From a virus, in IMG/VR virus record IMGVR_UViG_3300048913_000162: 38,179 bases of DNA. One strand, given 5' to 3'. Below, one piece after another: positions 4,810-37,170 of the stretch; position 1 is the stretch's first letter; each line of letters begins with the position of its first letter. The position numbers and the translations under genes are program-made. The notes beneath the pieces were generated by a model that had not been told where the DNA came from, made no database searches, and worked only from the letters and a program-made list of their open reading frames with translations.

Positions 4810-6617
4810 AGCCCACCCATTTGCTTGAGAGTTTGCGCTTTCTTCATCAGGGACTGATAGTCAGCAGGACTCGTTTTCTTCAAATTGGCGACAAAACCTT
4901 GTGCCTCTGCGGGGTCCATGACCTTCAGTTGATAAATACGCGGGTCCATGTTTTGACGCCACGTCGCCTCGAACTGCTGCTGAGATTTATGGTCCGTTAT
5001 GTTCGCGGCCTGCATTGCGTTCGTCATCCCTTGCAATGCAAGTTCGCCTGCTTTTGCGTACCTAGCCATGCCCTGAACGGCCTGCGGGAACATCTTCCCA
5101 TTCACATTCCCTTGTACCTGCTGATTCAGCTGCGCATCGGTGCCAGTGCCACCCGCAGCCTGCCAGGCGCGGCTTGCATTTTGCGACATGAATTTCATCA
5201 GTTCTTGATAACTGGATGCGTCGCCTTTCCACGATTTGATACCAAACGTGTCTGCAGCAATGCCCTTGATTTTGTTGTTCCAGTCAGCGGTCGGGCCTGT
5301 GGCAACGCCAGACTTCGAAAGGTCAAGGATGTTATCGAGCACGTTCACGCGCGAGGGAGATTCCTGCGCCTGCTTGATTAGGGAACTGAAGCGGTCACTT
5401 GCTGCTTTCGCGATGCCCTGCTGATAATCGTTGAAGCCTGGGGCATTTCCCGGTCGGATTACAGCAGCGCTCTCCGTGGGTGCAGGATTCGGGCTCGCAG
5501 AGGTGCCCGAGCCCTCGATACTGGTCCCAGGTTTGCTCCCCGGACGAAGATATCCAATCCTCCGCGCCTCCGACATGACCTGTTCTTTCTCTTGCTGGGT
5601 CATGTTGGTCAGATCGATTTTCGGCCCCGGCGCAGCCTGCCTTGACGGAGCTGATGTGGGAACTGAAGCAGTGGGATTTTGTCCGGTTGATGGAGCGCCA
5701 GATGCCCCCTGAGGAATGCCGACGAAGTATGTAGGCTTGCCTTCATTATCGACCCCTTGACCGAGAGTCCCAAGCGTCTGGCCGAGCTTTTTCGCTTTCT
5801 CTGACTCCTGAATGGCGCCGACTCCACCACTTACCGGCGCAGTCGTCCATTGTCCGTCCGCGCCACGAACGTTGATGTACCCTGGGGGTGCTGCTGTCGG
5901 CAGCCCCTGCACATTGCCGTTGCTATCCGCGTAAGCTCCTTCACCAAGACGTGTCGGGGCAATGTAGCCTTCCTTTACGCGCTTGCCCATCTCGAAAGTG
6001 CGCGCCTGCTCTGGCGAGATGCCAAGATAGCGGTCGGTCTTCATACCTTCGGTGGGTTTGAACTGGTCCCAGTATGCTGAACCGGCAGCTTGGCCCCCGA
6101 GATCCTGAATTATCTGCCCTTTGACCAGATTACCCATGGTGAAGTTGTTCTGCGCAGGCTGCGGAATAGCATCCATCCGGGCCGCGTTCTGCACAGTCGG
6201 CCCGACGCCGCCCTGGTTGACCATTGCGCCAGTGTCGTCTTGAGCACTCGGTTGCGAGGTTGCGCCTTGCGAAAGTGCGACGCTAGCAGGAGCAGGAGCA
6301 CTATCATTGCCACGCAAGATATCTCCCATGCGGCCCTGCATCGCCTTGGCAAGGGCGAGTTGCTTTGTATCCGCAGCATTCTGCGCGTAGCCGCCCATGA
6401 GCGCCTGCGCCATCTTCGCCACCGCTTCAAGCGGACTGTGCTTCACGGCCCAGCCGTTGACAACCTGAGTGTCACCAAGCGGCTGCATGGCCTGTTGCCG
6501 AAGGATGTCCGCATACTGCTGCTGTCGCGCGATCTGTGTCTGTTGTGCGGCGAGGTCTGGTGCGATCATCTGGATCGCGGCCGGTGCCTGCGCGCTGGTG
6601 AAAGGATTCCCGGCCAT
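4806..6617 (-). CDS. Large internal virion / DNA-ejection-type protein (positional analogue of P22 gp20)
   Basis: 603 aa, Gln/Ala/Gly-rich. ATGA overlaps at both ends. Assigned by synteny only. Confidence 0.5.
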   Translation of the reverse strand: MAGNPFTSAQAPAAIQMIAPDLAAQQTQIARQQQYADILRQQAMQPLGDTQVVNGWAVKHSPLEAVAKMAQALMGGYAQNAADTKQLALAKAMQGRMGDILRGNDSAPAPASVALSQGATSQPSAQDDTGAMVNQGGVGPTVQNAARMDAIPQPAQNNFTMGNLVKGQIIQDLGGQAAGSAYWDQFKPTEGMKTDRYLGISPEQARTFEMGKRVKEGYIAPTRLGEGAYADSNGNVQGLPTAAPPGYINVRGADGQWTTAPVSGGVGAIQESEKAKKLGQTLGTLGQGVDNEGKPTYFVGIPQGASGAPSTGQNPTASVPTSAPSRQAAPGPKIDLTNMTQQEKEQVMSEARRIGYLRPGSKPGTSIEGSGTSASPNPAPTESAAVIRPGNAPGFNDYQQGIAKAASDRFSSLIKQAQESPSRVNVLDNILDLSKSGVATGPTADWNNKIKGIAADTFGIKSWKGDASSYQELMKFMSQNASRAWQAAGGTGTDAQLNQQVQGNVNGKMFPQAVQGMARYAKAGELALQGMTNAMQAANITDHKSQQQFEATWRQNMDPRIYQLKVMDPAEAQGFVANLKKTSPADYQSLMKKAQTLKQMGGL

Positions 6618-7603
6618 CAGAGTGCCCCCACGTCGATGACCTTGTAGCCACTTTCATGCGTCGACACAGCATCAGGATTGACCGCTTCCAGTTCATGCGC
6701 CAGTACGCCGATTTCCGGCCGGCCGAATTTTATGTAGCTGTATATGCCGATGCCCAACTTGTCGTGCGTGCCGATGCGCTTGATATTGGTTTTGAGGCGC
6801 GCATCGGAGAAGTACATCAGGGCGGCCGCGCCGCCGAGCTGGCCTGCCGTGCCGAGCAGGGCGTTTTGCTGCCCCACCTTCGAGTTGTAGAGGCCGAGGT
6901 TGTACTGATTCATACCATTCGCAGCACCCATCATGTCGGGCCCGCTCGTAGTCACCTGCTGCGGCGACTGCTGGAACGTCGGATTCGTGACCTGCGCACC
7001 GGTCCGGATCGCATTCAGTTCATTCATGGGCATATTGCGGTTCGCCACCTCTTGGGCGTACTGCTGGCCCTGTTGACTCTGGCCTAGCGTAATGCCCTGA
7101 AGTTGCGCTTGCTGTCGTGCGTCGTTCTGGTCGCGGCCAATCTGGTCCATCGCCCGGGTGTACGCCTCCGATCCAGGCATGATGCCTTGGTTGGCAAGCT
7201 GCGTTTCGAGGTCGGCCCGGTCGCGCTGCTGCTGCGGAAGAAGGCGAGCACTAATGAGGTCCGCTGCGTTGTTCGTTGCCTTTGTCGGGTCATAAGCGCT
7301 TGGCATGGGCGAGCCGAGCGTAGCCCCGACGCGCGCCGTTGCTGCGTCCTGCAGATTTCCCAGCCCGAGACTCGTCTTGTTCTGCTGATCCAATAGCGCC
7401 TGACCCGTAGGCGACAGGGAAACTGTCGATGTCCACTTATCCGGGTCATTCGGATCTTGTGCGTACGTCAGGTTGCCATACGGGGTGTACGTGTTGACGC
7501 GGTTCGCCTTGGTGGCCTGTTGTGCCGCCTCCAGATTTCCAGCTGCGGTTTCCTTTGCCGCGCCTGCATAGTCCGGTGGCGGCGGGGCGTCTGCTTTACC
7601 CAT
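6617..7603 (-). CDS. Gln/Asn-rich fibrous protein with a C-terminal S74 intramolecular-chaperone autoprocessing domain; candidate tail needle/plug or fibre
   Basis: The C-terminus FSDARLKTNIKRIGTHDKLGIGIYSYIKF..GVLAHELEAVNPDAVS..GYKVIDVGAL matches the SDxRLKxNI signature of the endosialidase-chaperone (peptidase S74) domain. ATG 7603 sits just after the upstream stop, behind a GGGGAA RBS. The longer GTG start at 7627 is less likely. Confidence 0.65.
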   Translation of the reverse strand: MGKADAPPPPDYAGAAKETAAGNLEAAQQATKANRVNTYTPYGNLTYAQDPNDPDKWTSTVSLSPTGQALLDQQNKTSLGLGNLQDAATARVGATLGSPMPSAYDPTKATNNAADLISARLLPQQQRDRADLETQLANQGIMPGSEAYTRAMDQIGRDQNDARQQAQLQGITLGQSQQGQQYAQEVANRNMPMNELNAIRTGAQVTNPTFQQSPQQVTTSGPDMMGAANGMNQYNLGLYNSKVGQQNALLGTAGQLGGAAALMYFSDARLKTNIKRIGTHDKLGIGIYSYIKFGRPEIGVLAHELEAVNPDAVSTHESGYKVIDVGAL

Positions 7604-23807: not shown

Positions 23808-24300
23808 GCAATGCCGCGTCCTGATACACGTTGCCGTCCTTGAGACGCTTGTAGATCGTCTGCATGGCTGCCGTGACTTCCCAGCGCTTGGCGATCGCCA
23901 TTTGTTCGTCATGAACGTGCAGGGCGGTTTCGATGTCGCGCAGGGCTTCGCCATCAAGGCGGAAGTTGCCGGTCTTGGCGCTGCGGATCTTGGCGCGGAA
24001 GCAGCCATCGAGGGCCGTTACCAGCTGCTGTTCGTACTCGGCGCCGATGCCTTTCTCGCACAAGACGAGAGCGACATTCAGCGCGCAGGCGACGCAGGAC
24101 CACGATTCCTCGTTGGCGTCACCAGTGCGCAGGTTCTCGAAAGAGAGCCAGTAGGCGACGCCAAGATCGGTCGTTTGGTCAGAGGTGAGGGTAGAGGCGT
24201 TCTCGCCGCGTGCGTGGCACATAGCGATGGCGACGAGGCCGCCGTGCTGTGATACCGCTCGCGGGCGGTATTGTTTACGGGGTTTCTTGGACTTGCTCAT
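23797..24300 (-). CDS. Hypothetical protein (167 aa)
   Basis: ATG with ATGA coupling to the upstream gene. No family recognised. Confidence 0.6.
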   Translation of the reverse strand: MSKSKKPRKQYRPRAVSQHGGLVAIAMCHARGENASTLTSDQTTDLGVAYWLSFENLRTGDANEESWSCVACALNVALVLCEKGIGAEYEQQLVTALDGCFRAKIRSAKTGNFRLDGEALRDIETALHVHDEQMAIAKRWEVTAAMQTIYKRLKDGNVYQDAALHEQ

Positions 24301-24668
24301 TTGGATTCCCCTGCGTTGCCGAACAGGGCCGCGACAAGGTAATCGCGACGGTTGATCGATTCGTATTGGCGAACGGTTTTTTGCTTAGGGGTGGCGCCTG
24401 GGATTGAACTTTGACGGGGGCTGGACGCGGTCGCGACGCAGTTTTGAGCCGGCCCGAGATGCCACACGTACTGAAAGCCGGCAGCACGATCAATTTCGAC
24501 ACGCTCACGGTGGGCGATGCCGGCGAGCTCCATTCGGTCGAGTTGGCTGGACACTCCCGAGCGGGAGTATCCGGTAAGCTTCCTCAGTTCTTCGTTCGAA
24601 CGCGGGGCAACTTTGAGCAGGGCCTCGATGGATTGAACCGAGAGGGAATGGCGATGGATCTTAGTCAT
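24297..24668 (-). CDS. Winged-helix (MarR-like) DNA-binding protein
   Basis: SNEELRKLTGYSRSGVSSQLDRMELAGIAHRERV is a wHTH pattern. ATG 24668 has ATGA coupling; the ORF-track start at 24677 is GTG. Confidence 0.55.
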   Translation of the reverse strand: MTKIHRHSLSVQSIEALLKVAPRSNEELRKLTGYSRSGVSSQLDRMELAGIAHRERVEIDRAAGFQYVWHLGPAQNCVATASSPRQSSIPGATPKQKTVRQYESINRRDYLVAALFGNAGESK

Positions 24669-24865
24669 GGCGGGCACTCCGAAAGTTGACGGCCATTGGC
24701 TTTCGTGACCTCGTAATGGCGAGCGAGCCAGCCGGTCTTCCAGTCAGCGATTGCGGCTGCTGATGGATTCATGCCGTGGTCGTCCAAGGTCAAGCCACGG
24801 TCGAACGCATCGGCGCCGCGTTGGCGCATCAGTGCGGGGGTGATTTCTCGAATTGCTTCGTCCAC
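24665..24865 (-). CDS. Hypothetical protein (66 aa)
   Basis: GTG start with GAGG 6 nt upstream. Confidence 0.5.
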   Translation of the reverse strand: MDEAIREITPALMRQRGADAFDRGLTLDDHGMNPSAAAIADWKTGWLARHYEVTKANGRQLSECPP

Positions 24866-24867
24866 GA

Positions 24868-25062
24868 TTACCTCTTCTTGTCTGTTGCTCTGCGGTAGTG
24901 CTCGACGGCTTCGGCCAGCTCTACACCGCTTTTCTCGTACCGGCCAGCTGCGCGCTTCTTCTCGTCAGGCGGAGCGACTTGCACAGCCTTCCGACGATCT
25001 GCCCATGTACAGGCCTTTGCTATCACTTTTTTTGCCTCATAACTTTCATGTGATTCACTCAT
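24868..25062 (-). CDS. Hypothetical basic protein (64 aa)
   Basis: ATG with an AGGGA RBS. Confidence 0.5.
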   Translation of the reverse strand: MSESHESYEAKKVIAKACTWADRRKAVQVAPPDEKKRAAGRYEKSGVELAEAVEHYRRATDKKR

Positions 25063-25079
25063 TCAGTTATCCCTTTTAT

Positions 25080-25102
25080 GGCCCGTTTCCCGGGCTGTTT
25101 TT
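25080..25102 (+). terminator. Plus-strand intrinsic-terminator-like hairpin inside the minus-strand early operon
   Basis: GCCCG-TTTCC-CGGGC followed by TGTTTTTG on the plus strand. No U-tract follows on the minus strand. Confidence 0.35.
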
Positions 25103-25129
25103 GCCGTCTCCTAGCGCAGCCGAAACCCA

Positions 25130-25381
25130 TTAAAGATGCCTCCTGCCGTTGCTCACGCCGCGCGCTCGACCAGCCACACGACCCGGGCCCGGACATCCTC
25201 GGGATTCCTTGAGCGTGGGCGGCGCAATACCATGGGTCTGCACCGCGTTGTTGATAAGGCAGCGGTTGAGCGCGCTTTTCGAGATACCGAGCAGCTTGCT
25301 CAACGCTGTGAAATTACCCATCTCTTTCGGGTTCAACAGGGTTTCTAAAACTTCGGTACGAACGTCAGGGTTAAGGCTCAT
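25130..25381 (-). CDS. Small HTH protein in the cII position (possible CII-like regulator)
   Basis: GNFTALSKLLGISKSALNRCLINN is an HTH-like segment. The internal ATG at 25381 has AAGGAG 7 nt upstream. Functional assignment is positional only. Confidence 0.45.
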   Translation of the reverse strand: MSLNPDVRTEVLETLLNPKEMGNFTALSKLLGISKSALNRCLINNAVQTHGIAPPTLKESRGCPGPGRVAGRARGVSNGRRHL

Positions 25382-25449
25382 GGTTTGCTCCTTGGTGTTG
25401 CGGGTTACGAGGACGGCTGTTAGGCCGGGGTGCTGCTGATGCTTAAGGG

Positions 25450-25719
25450 TTACTGCGGCTGGGGTTCTGTAGCTGGTGGGCTGACAGTCTTGCGACGGCG
25501 ACGAGCAAGTTCCGGCCAGATGCTTTCCCATTCGTCTGGGAATAGCTCTTGACGGGTTACTTGGCCGGACGTGTGTCGCTCGATCTGAGCGCCATATTTG
25601 CTGGGGATAGGGCGCTTGCCCTTGGCCCAGTCCGTGACGTTGGGAGCATGTGTGCCAAGAGCCTTTGCCATTGCGGCAGCTCGGCCACGTCCTTGCGAAA
25701 GGTAGTCAGAGAGTTTCAT
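25450..25719 (-). CDS. cro: Cro-like regulator (YdaS/Cro HTH family)
   Basis: MKLSDYLSQ..AAAMAKALGTHAPNVTDWAKGKRPIPSKYGAQIERHTSGQVTRQELFPDEW is the YdaS-type pattern. The gene is divergent from the repressor gene across the operators. ATG 25719 lies 8 nt after the TAATAT -10 and has no SD, so the mRNA is possibly leaderless. The ORF track extends the ORF to 25728. Confidence 0.7.
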   Translation of the reverse strand: MKLSDYLSQGRGRAAAMAKALGTHAPNVTDWAKGKRPIPSKYGAQIERHTSGQVTRQELFPDEWESIWPELARRRRKTVSPPATEPQPQ

Positions 25720-25726
25720 AACCATC

Positions 25727-25755
25727 ATATTAGCCCACGGCTAATACGAACGCAA
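25727..25755 (-). promoter_or_regulatory. PR-like early promoter
   Basis: The minus strand reads TTGCGT-TCGTATTAGCCGTGGGC-TAATAT (17-nt spacer), with the operator embedded in the spacer and -10. Confidence 0.6.
25729..25745. promoter_or_regulatory. Operator OR1 (perfect 7-3-7 palindrome)
   Basis: ATTAGCCcacGGCTAAT. Its reverse complement is identical to the site at 27509..27525. Confidence 0.75.
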
Positions 25756-25762
25756 GCACGTT

Positions 25763-25779
25763 ATTAGCCTGTGGCGAAT
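25763..25779. promoter_or_regulatory. Operator OR2 (imperfect palindrome)
   Basis: ATTAGCCtgtGGCGAAT, 34 bp centre-to-centre from OR1. Confidence 0.65.
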
Positions 25780-25795
25780 TCAACCTTTAGCCAAT

Positions 25796-26236
25796 ATGAC
25801 GTTTAATACAACGATGAAGAAAATCGAGGACGTGCGCCGCGACAACTTACGTCGCCTGCGTGACGAATTAGGTGGGGTTCAGGAGCTAGCGGATCGACTT
25901 GGGAAAAGTCAATCGCAGATCAGTCAATGGTTGAACGCATCTACGCATTCGGCGACTGGGAAGCCTCGGACCATAAGTAGCGGCTCATGTCGAGAGCTTG
26001 AGCGGACACTCAAAAAGCCGGAGGGCTGGATGGACGTCGAGCACGGGCCCCTGACCATAGTTCATTCCAATGAGGCGACCGCGTTACGGAAGATTCTGGC
26101 TGACGCATCAGCCGAGGTCCGATTGTTGTCCGTTTACAACCTTGCGAACGCTGACCAGCGGGAACTCATAGATAGCGCAGTGCGCCTGGTCATCGAGAAG
26201 CTGGACATCGTCACGGCTCTCCAAGGTCGTAAGTGA
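25796..26236 (+). CDS. cI: CI-like immunity repressor: XRE-type HTH N-terminus and a short helical C-terminus, with no S24 peptidase domain
   Basis: LRRLRDELGGVQELADRLGKSQSQISQWLN is an HTH. Divergent from the cro-like gene across the operators. 146 aa, with no Ser-Lys autocleavage module visible. No SD before the ATG. Confidence 0.75.
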   Translation: MTFNTTMKKIEDVRRDNLRRLRDELGGVQELADRLGKSQSQISQWLNASTHSATGKPRTISSGSCRELERTLKKPEGWMDVEHGPLTIVHSNEATALRKILADASAEVRLLSVYNLANADQRELIDSAVRLVIEKLDIVTALQGRK

Positions 26237-26566
26237 AGCGGGAATTGCCTGCTTCGCGTATGCACGCAAGAGCTGCCGGGCCATGCCGACAAGATGCTCC
26301 CGCCCCATGTCATTCATCAATGAATACATTGCCGCAAGCTCAGGCATATGGTTCATACACACCTCAAAAGAAGGGACGTGTCAACGAGCCCATTCAGTAA
26401 TTGATAGTTACCGGTACTGCAGATACGAAGCGAGGTCGTGTTCAATATCCTAAGGATTTTCTTAGTGTTTCCCTAGGGATTGCCTTAAAACATAGCACGA
26501 TTTTTGTCTTGACGTGAAGCAATTTTAAACACTGTTACGTTTGGATTGCAGTTGTTCGGTAGCATG

Positions 26567-26595
26567 TTTCCAGATAAATACTGTACACCTATACA
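26567..26595 (+). promoter_or_regulatory. Candidate sigma70 promoter overlapped by the LexA box
   Basis: TTTCCA-N17-TATACA. Both hexamers match consensus at 4 of 6 positions. Confidence 0.35.
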
Positions 26596-26598
26596 GTA
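26579..26598. promoter_or_regulatory. LexA (SOS) box
   Basis: TACTGTACACCTATACAGTA has perfect CTGT-N8-ACAG cores and perfect TACTGT/ACAGTA arms. It matches the TACTGTATATATATACAGTA consensus at 17 of 20 positions. Confidence 0.75.
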
Positions 26599-26690
26599 GT
26601 TTGCGCTAGATCATTATGGTGTCACAAGGCGAGCATGATTTTAACAATCGGGTGGGCGCGAAGGCGCGCCTAATGTCGGATGGAGGGAGC

Positions 26691-26945
26691 ATGGGTTGGG
26701 GGATAGCAATAGGCATTCTGCTATTAGGCGGAATCTATAACGCGGTAAAAGAATGCTTACTTGAGTTGAGAAAAATCTCAATGCATTCGCGAGCTATGGA
26801 GGAAGTAATCTCTTCTATTAACTCAAATATTGTTGTTATAACTATTAGTCTGGATCGAGTTGATTCCAGACTGGCCAACGTGGAAGCGACCGCAAACCTC
26901 GCATATGATCGTCTGGCGGAGTCAAGGTATTCAAACAACAAATAA
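26691..26945 (+). CDS. AT-rich orphan small membrane protein (N-terminal TM helix plus a helical/coiled-coil tail); accessory gene in the rexAB-equivalent slot
   Basis: ATG 26691 is preceded by GGAGGGAG. MGWGIAIGILLLGGIYNAVKECLLELRKISMHSRAMEEVISSINSNIVVITISLDRVDSRLANVEATANLAYDRL... The ORF is visibly far more AT-rich than the rest of the genome. The ORF track extends it to ATG 26616, which has no SD. Confidence 0.55.
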   Translation: MGWGIAIGILLLGGIYNAVKECLLELRKISMHSRAMEEVISSINSNIVVITISLDRVDSRLANVEATANLAYDRLAESRYSNNK

Positions 26946-26989
26946 TCCCCGCTTGGGGCAGGGATTCGTAATGCGGGGTTGACAGCCCC

Positions 26990-27011
26990 AAAACGGCAGT
27001 TGTCGCTGCCG
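26990..27011 (-). terminator. Minus-strand intrinsic terminator (convergent on the AT-rich ORF)
   Basis: The minus strand reads CGGCAG-CGACAA-CTGCCG followed by TTTTGGGG. Confidence 0.5.
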
Positions 27012-27234
27012 AAGGTGAGGATACTGCGAAGACGGTCCCCCGCGAACCGCAATCGCTGAGGCAGGCAATAGTCTCTTCGCGTGTCCAAGCCGACCAGTGG
27101 AGCGGGGCTACCCCCACTCCACTGGCTGCCAAGAAGCTGCTGCAGCAGCTGACCGGCACGTGCCATGGAAGGGCACGTTAAATATACCTACGGGCTAAAA
27201 CGCTCGTGCGCACGAGCTTTCACCGAGAACATCC

Positions 27235-27345
27235 ATGAAAGCGAATGCTAAAGCAATACAGGTGGGCTGGCTTCTTGCCGTGGCCAAAGTAATCGATTCG
27301 ATCACATCGTTACTGAGGACGCTCCACGACATTGGCAAGCTGTGA
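27235..27345 (+). CDS. Candidate 36-aa amphipathic/hydrophobic peptide ORF
   Basis: MKANAKAIQVGWLLAVAKVIDSITSLLRTLHDIGKL. Only a weak GAGAA upstream. Flanked by hairpins. Coding status uncertain. Confidence 0.25.
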   Translation: MKANAKAIQVGWLLAVAKVIDSITSLLRTLHDIGKL

Positions 27346-27418
27346 CCTGAGCCAGGCGGCCCGGTGAAAGCTGGGCCGCCAGTGCTGAACTCTACACCTC
27401 ATCCCATCGGTTTACAAC

Positions 27419-27445
27419 AGCCCGCCATGAGCGGGCTAATTTTTT
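27419..27445 (+). terminator. Plus-strand rho-independent terminator closing the repressor/accessory transcription unit before OL
   Basis: AGCCCGC-CATGA-GCGGGCT followed by AATTTTTTG. Confidence 0.7.
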
Positions 27446-27474
27446 GTCCATTTTATCCGACTTCATGGATCGCC

Positions 27475-27491
27475 ATTAGCCTTTGGCGAAA
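27475..27491. promoter_or_regulatory. Operator OL2 (imperfect palindrome)
   Basis: ATTAGCCtttGGCGAAA, 34 bp centre-to-centre from OL1, the same spacing as OR1-OR2. Confidence 0.65.
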
Positions 27492-27498
27492 ATAATTG

Positions 27499-27527
27499 TT
27501 GCACTCAGATTAGCCGTGGGCTAATAT
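27499..27527 (+). promoter_or_regulatory. PL-like early promoter
   Basis: TTGCAC-TCAGATTAGCCGTGGGC-TAATAT, identical to the PR-like promoter at 26 of 29 positions. Confidence 0.6.
27509..27525. promoter_or_regulatory. Operator OL1 (perfect 7-3-7 palindrome)
   Basis: ATTAGCCgtgGGCTAAT. Confidence 0.75.
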
Positions 27528-27573
27528 AACTCCATCGCAACGAGCCCAGCAGGGCGAACCGAGGGAGACCGAC

Positions 27574-27756
27574 ATGTACACCTACACCGTAGTTTGCTTT
27601 GGAGCCGAGATTGGCTTTGGCGAGAGCGAAACCTTCCTGGACGCCAAGCGCGAGGCCGAAGCGCAAGCATCGGAAAACGGCAGCTGGTATCCGCGCAGCG
27701 ATTGGGGCTACATCACCCGCAATCCGGCCGGGATGACGGTCGAGTTTAACGTCTGA
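27574..27756 (+). CDS. Hypothetical early protein (60 aa)
   Basis: ATG with a GAGGGAG RBS; first gene after the PL-like promoter. Confidence 0.55.
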   Translation: MYTYTVVCFGAEIGFGESETFLDAKREAEAQASENGSWYPRSDWGYITRNPAGMTVEFNV

Positions 27757-27767
27757 TCGGAGGCCGC

Positions 27768-28115
27768 ATGAACGCCCGCATGTCCCCCGAAGAGGCCCGC
27801 GACGCGAAGATCCGCGAGCTCACCGCCAAGAACGCCGAGTACACGAAGGCTCTGATCGCGAAAGGTGACGTCAAGACGATCCACGATGTTGGCAACGACG
27901 TCACCAACTACCTCGCGTTTGCCCAAGAGGATCTGAACAAGCTTGTTACCGGCGCACTCACTTTCGAGCAGGTGCGCGACAAGGTGATCGAGGACGACGC
28001 CGAGGTTCAGGCTATCTCGCAGGTCGAGAAGATGGAATCGGAACGAGAAGAAGAGGCGCGCTGGGCACGTATCGAGCGCATGGCTTGGAATCGTGAGATT
28101 GGGTGGTTGATATGA
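27768..28115 (+). CDS. Hypothetical early protein (115 aa, acidic)
   Basis: ATG with GGAGG 5 nt upstream. Confidence 0.6.
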   Translation: MNARMSPEEARDAKIRELTAKNAEYTKALIAKGDVKTIHDVGNDVTNYLAFAQEDLNKLVTGALTFEQVRDKVIEDDAEVQAISQVEKMESEREEEARWARIERMAWNREIGWLI

Positions 28116-28324
28116 GCACGCAGACCACGACCGGGCGTCTCGAAGCCCTCAAGCGCTCGCTGGAAGCCGCACGCGACACGGATCAATCGCCAATCCCGGC
28201 CAGCATCCGCCAGCAGCACGACCTGTACATGCAGGGCCTGAATGACGGCGTGCAGCTAGCCATCGATGCGATCAACTACGAACTGCAGACTGTCAATGCC
28301 GGGCTGCTGGCAGTACACCAATAA
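28112..28324 (+). CDS. Hypothetical early protein (70 aa)
   Basis: ATGA overlap with the upstream stop. The ORF-track start at 28103 is GTG. Confidence 0.55.
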   Translation: MSTQTTTGRLEALKRSLEAARDTDQSPIPASIRQQHDLYMQGLNDGVQLAIDAINYELQTVNAGLLAVHQ

Positions 28325-28362
28325 ACCAGCCGCCGGCGGCGCCGGCCAGATAGGAGCAGCAG

Positions 28363-28665
28363 ATGGGCATCGTGAAGTTCAAAACTGGTTTTACGCGTGA
28401 GCCGATCGAACGAGTCGAGGTTCTGCGCGAGACCAAGGCTTCCGTCTACGTCCCTACGAATGGCTTCCAGCCAAAGGGCGAGAAAGAGCGGCGCGAAGCA
28501 AAGATGGGCGAGTGCGCGCAATACCACGACACGTGGGAAGCCGCGCACGAATTCTTGATGGTTAAGGCGCAGGCTGAAGTTGCCAAGGCTCGCCGTAGCC
28601 TGGAATTGGCAAATTCAAAGCTGGGCAACATCAAAGGCATGAAGCAGCCGAAGGGTGCCCAATGA
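28363..28665 (+). CDS. Hypothetical early protein (100 aa, basic)
   Basis: ATG with a TAGGAG RBS. Confidence 0.6.
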   Translation: MGIVKFKTGFTREPIERVEVLRETKASVYVPTNGFQPKGEKERREAKMGECAQYHDTWEAAHEFLMVKAQAEVAKARRSLELANSKLGNIKGMKQPKGAQ

Positions 28666-35329: not shown

Positions 35330-36430
35330 ATGGGCAGGCAGAGATTAGCGAAAAACCGGGCATTCCCGCCGAATCTGTACCAGAACACGGCGGGATATTT
35401 CTACTATCGCAACCCGCAGACCAAAGAGCAGAAGGGGCTAGGCCGTGAGAAAGCTTTCGCCTTTCAGGAAGCACGGAAGGCAAACGCCGCCCTTGCGACG
35501 AGAGAGCGATCGTCACTCGTCGATTGGGTTCTCGGGCGCAAGGACTACACGTTGGCCGAATGGCTGCCGATATACCGAGAGCTTTGGGAGGCAAAGGAAC
35601 AGAGAGCAGCAAGTACACGATATAACGTGACGAGCCTGTTTAAGAAGCTTGCCGAGTCAGATCTTGCGAAGATGCGCATGCGCCATATTGAGACAATGCA
35701 CGTTTCCAACTATCTGGAATCGTTCGAGAAATCGAGTGGATCTGGCAACGCGCGCAACATGCGGTCGAGGCTGCGCGACGTCTTCCGATGGGCCGAGACG
35801 CAAGGCGTGATCGACGTTGCCAAGAACCCGGTGCCTGCGACGTTCAATGCATCCTACAAGGTGAAGCGCGAACGGCTGAGCCTGGAGCAGTTCTGGGCGA
35901 TCCACGCGCAGGCATCTACGTGGGGGAAGAATGCAATGCTGCTTGCCCTCGTCACCGGCCAGAGGCGTGACGATATCGCCAACATGAAGTTTGCCGATTA
36001 CAGGGATGGCTTCCTTTACGTAGCCCAGGGCAAGTCAGCAGGGAAAACGCGGCTGCAGCTTGATGGGTCGATCATGCTAGCGAAAGTAGGCGTGTCCATT
36101 GGAGACGTAATTGCGGGGTGTCGCGACCTGATCATCAGTCGGTATCTGGTACATCATACCGAGCGCGTGTCGTCGATCAAGCCCGGCGATAAGGTGAGGG
36201 CAAACGGCTTGTCTGATGCGTTCAAGCAGGCGCGCGAGTTGGCGAAAATTGGTGCATCAGAGGGGCGCACGCCACCGTCTTTCCATGAGATCCGAAGCCT
36301 TTCGGAACGGCTCTACCGGGAGGAGTTTGGGGCAGAGTTTGCACAGGCAATTCTCGGACACAAGAGTGCGCAGACGACGGCCAAATATGACGATCTACGT
36401 GGTGAATGGAAGACCGTCAAGGCAAAGTGA
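35330..36430 (+). CDS. int: Tyrosine integrase (lambda Int family, with an N-terminal arm-binding domain)
   Basis: N-terminal NLYQNTAGYFYYRNPQTKEQKGLG. Catalytic region GQRRDDI, SFHEIRSL, ILGHKSAQTTAKYDD (R..HxxR..H..Y). Confidence 0.95.
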   Translation: MGRQRLAKNRAFPPNLYQNTAGYFYYRNPQTKEQKGLGREKAFAFQEARKANAALATRERSSLVDWVLGRKDYTLAEWLPIYRELWEAKEQRAASTRYNVTSLFKKLAESDLAKMRMRHIETMHVSNYLESFEKSSGSGNARNMRSRLRDVFRWAETQGVIDVAKNPVPATFNASYKVKRERLSLEQFWAIHAQASTWGKNAMLLALVTGQRRDDIANMKFADYRDGFLYVAQGKSAGKTRLQLDGSIMLAKVGVSIGDVIAGCRDLIISRYLVHHTERVSSIKPGDKVRANGLSDAFKQARELAKIGASEGRTPPSFHEIRSLSERLYREEFGAEFAQAILGHKSAQTTAKYDDLRGEWKTVKAK

Positions 36431-36657
36431 TTCTGTAATTTTTTAGACGGATTTCTGTAAAAATCACAGATCGCCTTTATATGCGGGCGCTATTCATGGT
36501 GCCGATATTTACACTTGAAACCTAGTTTTAAAGCAAGGTTCCCATAGGAGAATCAACAACTTGGATGATCTATTCCGGTAAGAAAAACGCACAAAAATGC
36601 AGGAAGAGGCCCCTAAGTAAACAACGACTTAGGAGCGTATTTCTGTAATTTTTTGCG
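36431..36657. other. attP region with repeated arm-type sites
   Basis: An AT-rich 227-bp gap between int and the convergent Rz gene. The exact 14-mer TTCTGTAATTTTTT occurs at 36431 and 36641, and TTCTGTAA occurs again at 36453. The core site is not identifiable without the host sequence. Confidence 0.6.
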
Positions 36658-37170
36658 TCACTTCGCGTTCACTGCCCGGCACTCGTCGAAGCGCTCGACG
36701 ACCTCGGCGTATCGTGACACGAGGCTTGCAATTGCTGCTCCGTAGCCGAGAACGTCAGCAGCAGCCTCCGGCACAAGGTCCGGTCCTGCTCCGTCAGTTG
36801 AAGGCGCGCTGGCAGCGGGTCGATTACCGGGCGTGGCGGCGGGTTGTATGGGACTGGCTGGGCAGCGCAGCCGGTCAGTGCCAGCACGCACACGGCGCTG
36901 AGCATCAGCGAGAGCTTGGGCATGTTCTTGGTCCTTTCGTGTGGCTTCGAGGTCGCGTGCGGCATCCTTGGTGCGCTGGTCCGATTCCAGTTTTCGGTAT
37001 GCCGCGGCGTCGCGGTCATGTTGAGCTTTTCCAGCTTCGACGGCAGCGTTGTAGCCAGCCCGATACCGCTCGTTGCCGTAGTGGTGCAGGCCGAACCAGC
37101 CGGCCACAGCCAGGGCCGCAGCGATCACCAGCCCGGTCAGGAAGCGGTCAAGCGTGTCGATGCCTATCAC
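36658..37170 (-). CDS. Rz: Rz-like inner-membrane spanin
   Basis: N-terminal TM (FLTGLVIAAALAVAGWFGL), then a charged coiled-coil periplasmic domain. GTGA coupling to the endolysin. Confidence 0.8.
   Translation of the reverse strand: MIGIDTLDRFLTGLVIAAALAVAGWFGLHHYGNERYRAGYNAAVEAGKAQHDRDAAAYRKLESDQRTKDAARDLEATRKDQEHAQALADAQRRVRAGTDRLRCPASPIQPAATPGNRPAASAPSTDGAGPDLVPEAAADVLGYGAAIASLVSRYAEVVERFDECRAVNAK
36669..36923 (-). CDS. Rz1: Rz1-like outer-membrane lipoprotein spanin, fully embedded in Rz in the +1 frame
   Basis: MPKLSLMLSAVCVLALTGC has a lipobox (LTGC), followed by the Pro-rich AAQPVPYNPPPRPVIDPLP. Confidence 0.8.
   Translation of the reverse strand: MPKLSLMLSAVCVLALTGCAAQPVPYNPPPRPVIDPLPARLQLTEQDRTLCRRLLLTFSATEQQLQASCHDTPRSSSASTSAGQ

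Follow-up and report, generated by a model that had tools for sequence, protein, structure and literature searches.

A LexA box in the immunity region of a temperate phage and its probable target, a small gene convergent with the repressor gene

The virus record IMGVR_UViG_3300048913_000162 (IMG/VR) is a stretch of 38,179 nucleotides, called here the window, which carries a single LexA (SOS) box in the immunity region of a lambdoid temperate phage. The reading favoured here, with moderate confidence, is that this box is the operator of a leftward promoter driving a small antirepressor gene of a new family, which lies inside the immunity region (26356..26108, 82 amino acids, aa), and that the 84-aa membrane-protein gene on the other side of the box is a passenger. 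SOS induction without cleavage of the repressor is probably the right picture. A preliminary description of the window, drawn from the sequence alone, does not mention the small gene: it had proposed that a repressor devoid of an autocleavage domain is relieved by a LexA-controlled small protein, and had considered the 84-aa protein for this role. The first part of the proposal fits the non-cleavable repressor and the single conserved LexA box; the assignment to the 84-aa gene does not hold. The coordinates of the features are collected in Table 1.

The box, TACTGTACACCTATACAGTA, agrees with the Escherichia coli-type 20-mer consensus at 17 of 20 positions and is the sole match in the window when up to three mismatches are allowed; none of 100 shuffled sequences contains such a match. 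The earlier report of a near-consensus site, unique in the window, is therefore borne out. The CTGT-N8-ACAG core also occurs as a single copy, but it is not significant by itself (0.46 copies are expected per window, and 36 of 100 shuffles contain at least one). Sixteen distinct related loci keep the box in this position, among them every locus that was found by protein homology alone, and the box is retained among loci which differ in their flanks, in the DNA-binding domains of their repressors and in the subtype of the small protein. Judged from its sequence, it is a conserved LexA operator, to which LexA would bind. That the palindrome should have arisen by chance, or should serve a phage protein instead of LexA, is very improbable. 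The low significance of the core would agree with such an origin, as would the centre of the box, ACACC(C/T)AT, which is more conserved and richer in G+C than a LexA site needs, but the consensus match is unequalled by the shuffles, the box persists while its surroundings vary, and the CI operators of this phage have a different sequence. A scan of genome contigs with the box pattern returned chance matches only (Chitinophagaceae, Myxococcota).

The CI-like repressor is a short protein, in which the Pfam and PHROG scans detect a helix-turn-helix (HTH) domain only. They find no S24 autocleavage domain in this protein, as had been stated before, and the repressors of the related loci have none either. 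No protein of the ANT, Bro or Tum type is encoded by the 28 open reading frames (ORFs) scanned, eight of which lie around the immunity region, the other 20 being early-region ORFs. Across the related loci, the repressors have three unrelated N-terminal HTH types and one common family of C-terminal domain, with a motif of about 40 residues, (E)VRLLxVYRLAxxxxRxxIDxAVxxVI. The single-sequence AlphaFold2 model of CI is uninformative (predicted local distance difference test, pLDDT, of 42), and the HTH of the window repressor shows a weak match (E = 0.009) to Rep of phage SPC32H (PDB 5d50).

The position of the box follows from that of the operators. The motif TTAGCC-N3-GGC(T/G)AA has four copies in the window, for 0.22 expected by chance, and they are confined to the right and left operator regions (OR and OL, two copies each). 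The LexA box and the 84-aa ORF therefore sit in the slot between cI and OL, where the preliminary description had placed them.

The small gene and cI are convergent, with 129 nt of overlap at their 3′ ends. The former is an existing gene call of the Joint Genome Institute (JGI; P0003) with three close homologues, and its family comprises 38 clusters, every one of which is annotated as hypothetical. Comparison with six relatives gives a ratio of nonsynonymous to synonymous differences (pN/pS) of 0.21–0.49 in codons 2–40, which lie outside cI, and of 0.6–1.1 in codons 41–82, which are antisense to it. AlphaFold2, supplied with a 38-sequence alignment, predicts a helix-turn-helix hairpin at residues 4–37 (pLDDT >90 throughout residues 1–38) followed by a disordered tail. 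Because the purifying selection and the confident part of the model both cover the N-terminal 40 residues or so, the predicted functional unit is this hairpin of about 40 residues, and the tail seems to arise from reading on into cI up to the first stop codon. The Shine–Dalgarno (SD) sequence, the purifying selection, the model and the size of the family indicate that this is a real gene. The protein belongs to no family of Pfam, PHROG or NCBIfam and matches no PDB sequence, a Foldseek search of the PDB with the model gives no match, and the family is absent from a collection of phage isolates searched with two small-protein subtypes.

The comparison of related loci ties this gene to the box and to one type of repressor. 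A search of viral contigs with the CI protein gives 35 loci. The four closest (65–90% CI identity) all have CTGTACACCCATACAG downstream of cI, and a convergent small ORF with an SD, overlapping the 3′ end of cI, is their common feature. Four of the 35 loci share the C-terminal domain of the window repressor, and all four have the box and the small gene; the other 31, with different CI C-termini, have no small gene (0/31). Ten further viral loci came from a DNA pattern scan with the box and a short flank. In all but one of these the box lies upstream of a leftward small gene (67–83 aa); the small genes form three sequence subtypes with an N-terminal pattern in common, and in most of the loci the ATG is 27–30 nt from the box, with GGAGGG in between.

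Since these ten loci were ascertained through the box, those found by the small protein alone were examined (L037, L039, L062, L063, L066 and L068), and all of them have CTGT-N8-ACAG upstream of the small gene. L037 and L039 are contigs reached via close homologues of the small protein: the former has a layout like that of the window and carries a 91-aa homologue of the membrane protein, and the latter has no gene between the box and the terminator that precedes OL. In L062 (a 6.9-Mb chromosome), L063 (Massilia sp. PDC64), L066 and L068, the box is 31–52 nt upstream of the small gene. Similarly, in a profile scan of all fetched loci the small gene is always accompanied by the box and by a repressor with one type of C-terminal domain. 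The co-occurrence of box, small gene and this domain is strict, and, on the sequences compared, it is the C-terminal domain of the repressor that the small protein tracks, not the DNA-binding domain.

Several observations suggest that the promoter at the box points leftward. Loci whose cargo is unrelated still share a conserved stretch of about 55 nt on the right-hand side of the box, which would be explained if the leftward promoter lies there. In L065, L066, L068 and L070, the layout read in the sense of the small gene is an A/T-rich element of the ATTGTTAAAAT type, (G/A)TGACA, 16 nt and nAAAnT, with the box one base later, so that transcription would start inside the box; the corresponding candidate elements of the window, assigned by eye, are given in Table 1. 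In ten loci, the distance between the box and the ATG is 27–57 nt, with a strong SD between them, and the transcription start would therefore be in or beside the box. This distance is 224 nt in the window, where a spacer, presumed to be a long 5′ untranslated region, separates the box from the gene. The spacer is conserved in the window, L002, L037 and L039 and absent where the distance is 27–57 nt; it contains no terminator and its predicted fold is not unusual (z = −0.65). It also holds the palindromes CTAAGGATTTTCTTAG and TCCCTAGGGA and a conserved TTGACG-N18-TGTTAC (26509–26538).

The preliminary description had proposed a rightward promoter, TTTCCA-N17-TATACA, which overlaps the box. The hexamers are present (26567–26595), but the important last T is missing from TATACA, the promoter scan does not retain them, and the −35 is not conserved: in many relatives this position is the ribosome-binding site and start codon of the leftward gene.

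The box could nevertheless control the rightward 84-aa gene, either by itself or, if it is an SOS operator that works in both directions, jointly with the leftward gene. Synthesis of the membrane protein would then be restricted to cells with damaged DNA, where it would act in abortive infection, exclusion or the timing of lysis. The hexamers just mentioned would agree with this, and the box is palindromic, so that TACAGT-like −10 hexamers occur on both strands. A rightward transcript could begin with the conserved 13-nt flank on that side of the box, and in another lineage (L024, L032) two LexA boxes follow an S24-type cI gene and stand directly upstream of a rightward 96-aa gene. However, the rightward cargo is unrelated or absent from one locus to another while the box stays. 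The point at which homology with L037 is lost separates the box precisely from the cassette with the 84-aa gene, and this cassette has its own candidate promoter, GTGTCA-N18-AACAAT (26619–26648, assigned by eye, with a GC hairpin at the predicted 5′ end), which is not overlapped by the box. Control of the 84-aa gene by the box is thus considered unlikely.

The cargo varies from locus to locus. Across loci, what lies to the right of the box is a lipoprotein, a secreted or membrane protein, an Arc-like regulator, or nothing; one of the slot lipoproteins shows a weak Cor-like match (E = 0.004). L002 has an unrelated lipoprotein, although its repressor is 90% identical to that of the window, and L003–L005 have an Arc-like regulator and a lipoprotein. 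The slot is empty in L039, whose repressor is a close relative with the same C-terminal domain family, and in L060; in these two loci the counterpart of the pre-OL terminator is only 100–150 nt past the box. In L003, L004, L005 and L047, the first cargo gene encodes an Arc/MetJ-type ribbon-helix-helix protein of 80–94 aa (phrog_3178, E = 8e-6), followed by a lipoprotein; it lies about 175–250 nt to the right of the box and is preceded by a conserved AT-rich aaataACTATA. The identity between the window and L037 is 90–100% over 25680–26599, 40–70% from exactly 26600 to about 27000 and then 95–100%. The cassette with the 84-aa gene is thus a mosaic of low G+C content. The G+C content falls to 42–46% over 26250–27000, compared to about 55–62% in the flanks, and is 42–45% in the 84-aa gene.

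The features which the preliminary description had given for the 84-aa ORF were found as described, namely the AT-rich stretch, the SD GGAGGGAG before the ATG at 26691 and the hydrophobic N-terminus (Kyte–Doolittle mean of 1.65 over the N-terminal 19 residues). Compared to its L037 relative, the gene has a pN of 0.33 and a pS of 0.81; it is therefore translated and under purifying selection. A longer gene call of 109 aa, with its start at 26616, was discarded because the 25 codons it adds show no conservation as coding sequence. The protein had been called an orphan. Indeed, it has no family in Pfam, PHROG, NCBIfam, PADLOC or the PDB, and a word-indexed search of 5.8 billion proteins retrieves only the protein itself, but an exhaustive HMMER scan of 1.8 billion representatives gives one relative (P0002, 91 aa, 51% identity), located in the same slot of related phages. 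BLASTP shows no similarity between the 84-aa protein and the analogous cargo of L056, which has a membrane anchor and a coiled coil.

Most likely, on this comparison, the 84-aa gene is a moron, an exchangeable passenger which is neither the conserved target of the box nor the trigger of induction. The idea that its product is the antirepressor fails on co-occurrence, since L002 has an unrelated lipoprotein and L039 nothing in its place, and it is the leftward gene that goes with this type of repressor in every locus. The other earlier idea, an SOS-triggered membrane effector, has gained no positive support: only the leftward gene and its upstream region are conserved with the box. A TisB/DinQ-style toxin had been named as an example of such an effector. 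Toxins of this type are hydrophobic peptides of about 30 aa or fewer, paired with an antisense RNA in cis or in trans, and have a LexA box at their own promoter. The 84-aa protein has a long helical soluble tail and no homology to them, the box is assigned to the opposite strand, and an Rfam scan of 25000–28500 gives no match, including no antitoxin RNA.

The proposed sequence of events is as follows. In the lysogen, host LexA would hold the small gene off. DNA damage would remove LexA, and a protein with about 40 structured residues, forming a helical hairpin, would be made. This protein would inactivate the repressor without cleaving it, most likely via the short C-terminal oligomerisation domain of the repressor, and transcription antisense into cI may add to the effect. 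The hairpin of the small protein, ELxxMYxxMxDxGRxxLxxMARQLL, aligns with the C-terminal motif of the repressor with P = 0.012 in hhalign, and when the columns are shuffled, a score as high is obtained once in 300 trials. No inverted DNA duplication that would relate the small gene to the 3′ end of cI was detected.

A number of points weigh against the small gene as an SOS-induced antirepressor. As far as sequence comparison goes, the protein is without homology to any known antirepressor; in particular, hhalign finds no similarity with Ant of SPC32H (P = 0.39). The likeness of its hairpin to the C-terminal domain of the repressor is weak and suggestive only, as two amphipathic hairpins may align trivially. 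The conservation of the box in the ten loci found by the pattern scan is by construction, and the co-occurrence of the small gene with the C-terminal domain is in part linkage, because the two coding regions physically overlap. As for the promoter, no candidate passes a scan for sigma-70-like consensus on either strand, and the leftward hexamer assignments are weak in some loci (e.g., L002, L055). In addition, the 224-nt gap of the window may leave room for a second promoter, nearer to the gene.

The absence of homology to known antirepressors would also suit a different role for the leftward gene. The box would still control it, but its product would have another SOS-timed function, for instance inhibiting cell division or modulating RecA or LexA, or else the transcript itself would act, as an antisense RNA or by convergent transcription into cI. 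Indeed, any transcript of the small gene must cover the final 129 nt of cI in antisense, and the C-terminal half of the small protein is unconstrained and predicted to be disordered. On the other hand, the purifying selection and the confident fold of the N-terminal 40 residues argue for use of the protein, and the small gene is found only with one type of repressor C-terminal domain. Moreover, a repressor that lacks S24 needs a route of induction, for which the ORFs scanned contain no other candidate. Such a role is quite unlikely, and an antirepressor remains the preferred function for the small protein.

The antisense and protein effects could also be combined. Because the small gene is antisense across the part of cI that encodes the C-terminal domain, a single promoter would deliver both the protein and the antisense effect. 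A tentative model, which is less probable than not, is that of a self-contained cassette made of a repressor and its own poison: the small protein would mimic the C-terminal oligomerisation hairpin of the repressor and form dead-end hetero-oligomers with it, and one LexA-gated promoter would give the antirepressor together with convergent or antisense interference with cI. The pair formed by the domain and its mimic would be portable between HTH types, of which there are three here.

The ant gene of phage SPC32H is reportedly a proven LexA-controlled gene. It encodes a protein of 86 aa (KC911856) and has a LexA box about 20 nt upstream, and its box–SD–ATG geometry is as in most relatives of the window. 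Unlike the overlapping genes of the window, ant and rep are separated by 14 kb, with ant adjacent to the tailspike gene, and Rep is longer than the window repressor (199 vs 146 aa). LexA-controlled small antirepressors which act on non-cleavable repressors have been described in the Gifsy phages, Fels-1, 186 and N15 (PMC3121763). GfoA, GftA, GfhA and FsoA of Gifsy-1/-2/-3 and Fels-1 resemble the present case in that a lambdoid prophage has a short uncleaved repressor and a small gene behind a LexA box (Lemire et al. 2011, PMC3121763). The small gene of the window, known here from its sequence, differs from theirs by its location inside the immunity region, convergent with and overlapping the repressor gene, and shares no sequence family with them. 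Similarly, Tum of 186 and AntC of N15 are antirepressors under LexA repression whose target repressors do not autocleave (as cited in PMC3121763), but these proteins are different ones, their genes are remote from the repressor gene, and the Pfam and PHROG scans show no homology between them and the small protein.

Two other systems are comparable in part. In the TF-smORF (transcription factor–small ORF) modules of linear plasmid-like phages, the cI repressor is inactivated by a non-proteolytic route, through small proteins of the same phage that have no recognizable domain (Silpe et al. 2023, PMC10432266). These modules are switched by a phage transcription factor, independently of SOS, whereas the window has a LexA box and no partner transcription factor. 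The 84-aa gene, for its part, lies between cI and OL like rexAB of lambda, has an atypical composition, and is swapped for other envelope proteins in the relatives. The rexAB genes are co-oriented with cI and directly behind it, whereas the 84-aa gene is separated from cI by the convergent gene and the LexA box, and its product is unrelated to RexA or RexB. On the evidence available, the module would work like the LexA-controlled antirepressor systems, outside their protein families and with a different, overlapping gene arrangement.

LexA-controlled antirepressor induction is known from a handful of enterobacterial phages, in which the antirepressor gene is far from the repressor gene. The window suggests a compact arrangement, with repressor, antirepressor and LexA operator overlapping in a single unit. 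The family of the small protein is uncharacterised, and its hosts appear to be soil Betaproteobacteria (Massilia). If the reading is true, this would be a new antirepressor family, tied to a defined repressor domain, and a repressor without S24, a convergent small ORF and a LexA box could be annotated together as an induction switch. The case also illustrates that the nearest gene on the expected strand is not necessarily the target of an operator.

Table 1. Positions of the features discussed, in window coordinates.
Feature	Position	Strand	Basis or detail
Cro-like regulator (YdaS/P22_Cro type)	25450..25728	-	Pfam YdaS_toxin, E = 6e-15
OR, two operators TTAGCC-N3-GGC(T/G)AA	25730..25778	.	Window pattern scan
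CI-like repressor, 146 aa	25796..26236	+	N-terminal HTH and short helical C-terminal domain; Pfam HTH_3 only; phrog_12107 "transcriptional repressor"
Small gene, 82 aa, candidate SOS-induced antirepressor	26356..26108	-	Convergent with cI; SD GAGGTG just before ATG 26356
Spacer, presumed long 5′ untranslated region of the small gene	26357..26578	-	95–100% identical to L037
LexA (SOS) box TACTGTACACCTATACAGTA	26579..26598	.	CTGT-N8-ACAG core at 26581–26596; TACTGT/ACAGTA arms
Conserved region upstream of the small gene	26597..26651	-	Anchored alignment; includes 13-nt flank TAGTTTGCGCTAG (26597–26609)
Candidate −10, CAAACT	26603..26598	-	Assigned by eye
Candidate −35, GTGACA	26625..26620	-	Assigned by eye
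A/T-rich UP-like element ATTGTTAAAAT	26648..26638	-	Assigned by eye
Divergent low-GC cassette carrying the 84-aa gene	26600..26966	+	GC hairpin 26655–26670; hairpin 26944–26966
84-aa moron gene, N-terminal membrane anchor and helical tail	26691..26945	+	SD GGAGGGAG at 26682–26689
Intrinsic terminator closing the immunity/moron region, directly before OL	27419..27437	+	Terminator scan
OL, two operators as at OR	27476..27524	.	Window pattern scan

The window has a G+C content of about 58%. The genes running leftward from 25728 are the Cro-like gene, those for replication (an HTH_36 initiator and a DnaC/IstB-like loader), NinG and the structural genes. In the other direction, starting at 25796, the CI-like gene is followed by the low-GC stretch and then by an early operon, which includes ERF, Gp157, Lar and the integrase. 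The phage isolate collection gives no match when searched at the nucleotide level with the locus or with 25 kb of the window, and no useful match with the CI protein; searches with the portal and integrase proteins give distant matches only, which indicate no host. The host is probably a member of the Oxalobacteraceae, because one member of the small-protein family lies in Massilia sp. PDC64; this assignment is based on that relative and not on the window itself.

In the loci L024, L025 and L032, which have a 232-aa CI of the S24 type, two tandem LexA boxes lie 35 bp apart at about 4815–4865, directly upstream of the rightward 96-aa gene (MNAVIEVRLEDCP..., 4880–5170). This gene occupies the same post-cI slot and belongs to no PHROG family; judging from its sequence context, it is a different SOS-controlled gene, in a lineage with a cleavable repressor. 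In L037, a 72-aa protein encoded in the early operon on the replication side (7373–7591) matches LexA_DNA_bind (PF01726), and its counterpart in the window (24297–24677) shows only a weak match to the MarR_2 winged helix.

Several structured elements surround the end of the low-GC cassette. The hairpin AATCCCCGCTTGGGGCAGGGATT (26944–26966) overlaps the stop codon of the 84-aa gene and scores as an intrinsic terminator on the minus strand only, which hints at leftward transcription arriving from the hairpin-rich region on its right. This region (26940–27234, about 295 nt) contains no plausible ORF and roughly eight consecutive strong hairpins, with fold z scores of −4.2 on the plus strand and −4.8 on the minus strand. 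It is 95–100% identical to L037, despite the 40–70% identity of the neighbouring cassette, and has no Rfam match; it may be a structured RNA or an insulator or terminator array. It is followed by a hydrophobic ORF of 36 aa, MKANAKAIQVGWLLAVAKVIDSITSLLRTLHDIGKL (27235–27345, plus strand), for which gene calls exist in L037 and L038 too and which matches no family. It could encode a small membrane peptide that resembles toxins or exclusion factors in its role. Downstream of it come a hairpin and then the terminator that immediately precedes OL.

A search for tRNA genes, made in view of the att site, finds none in the window. Repeated (G/T)ATTTCTGTAATTTTTT motifs occur at 36430–36660, downstream of the integrase gene, and are probably the arm-type integrase binding sites of attP.

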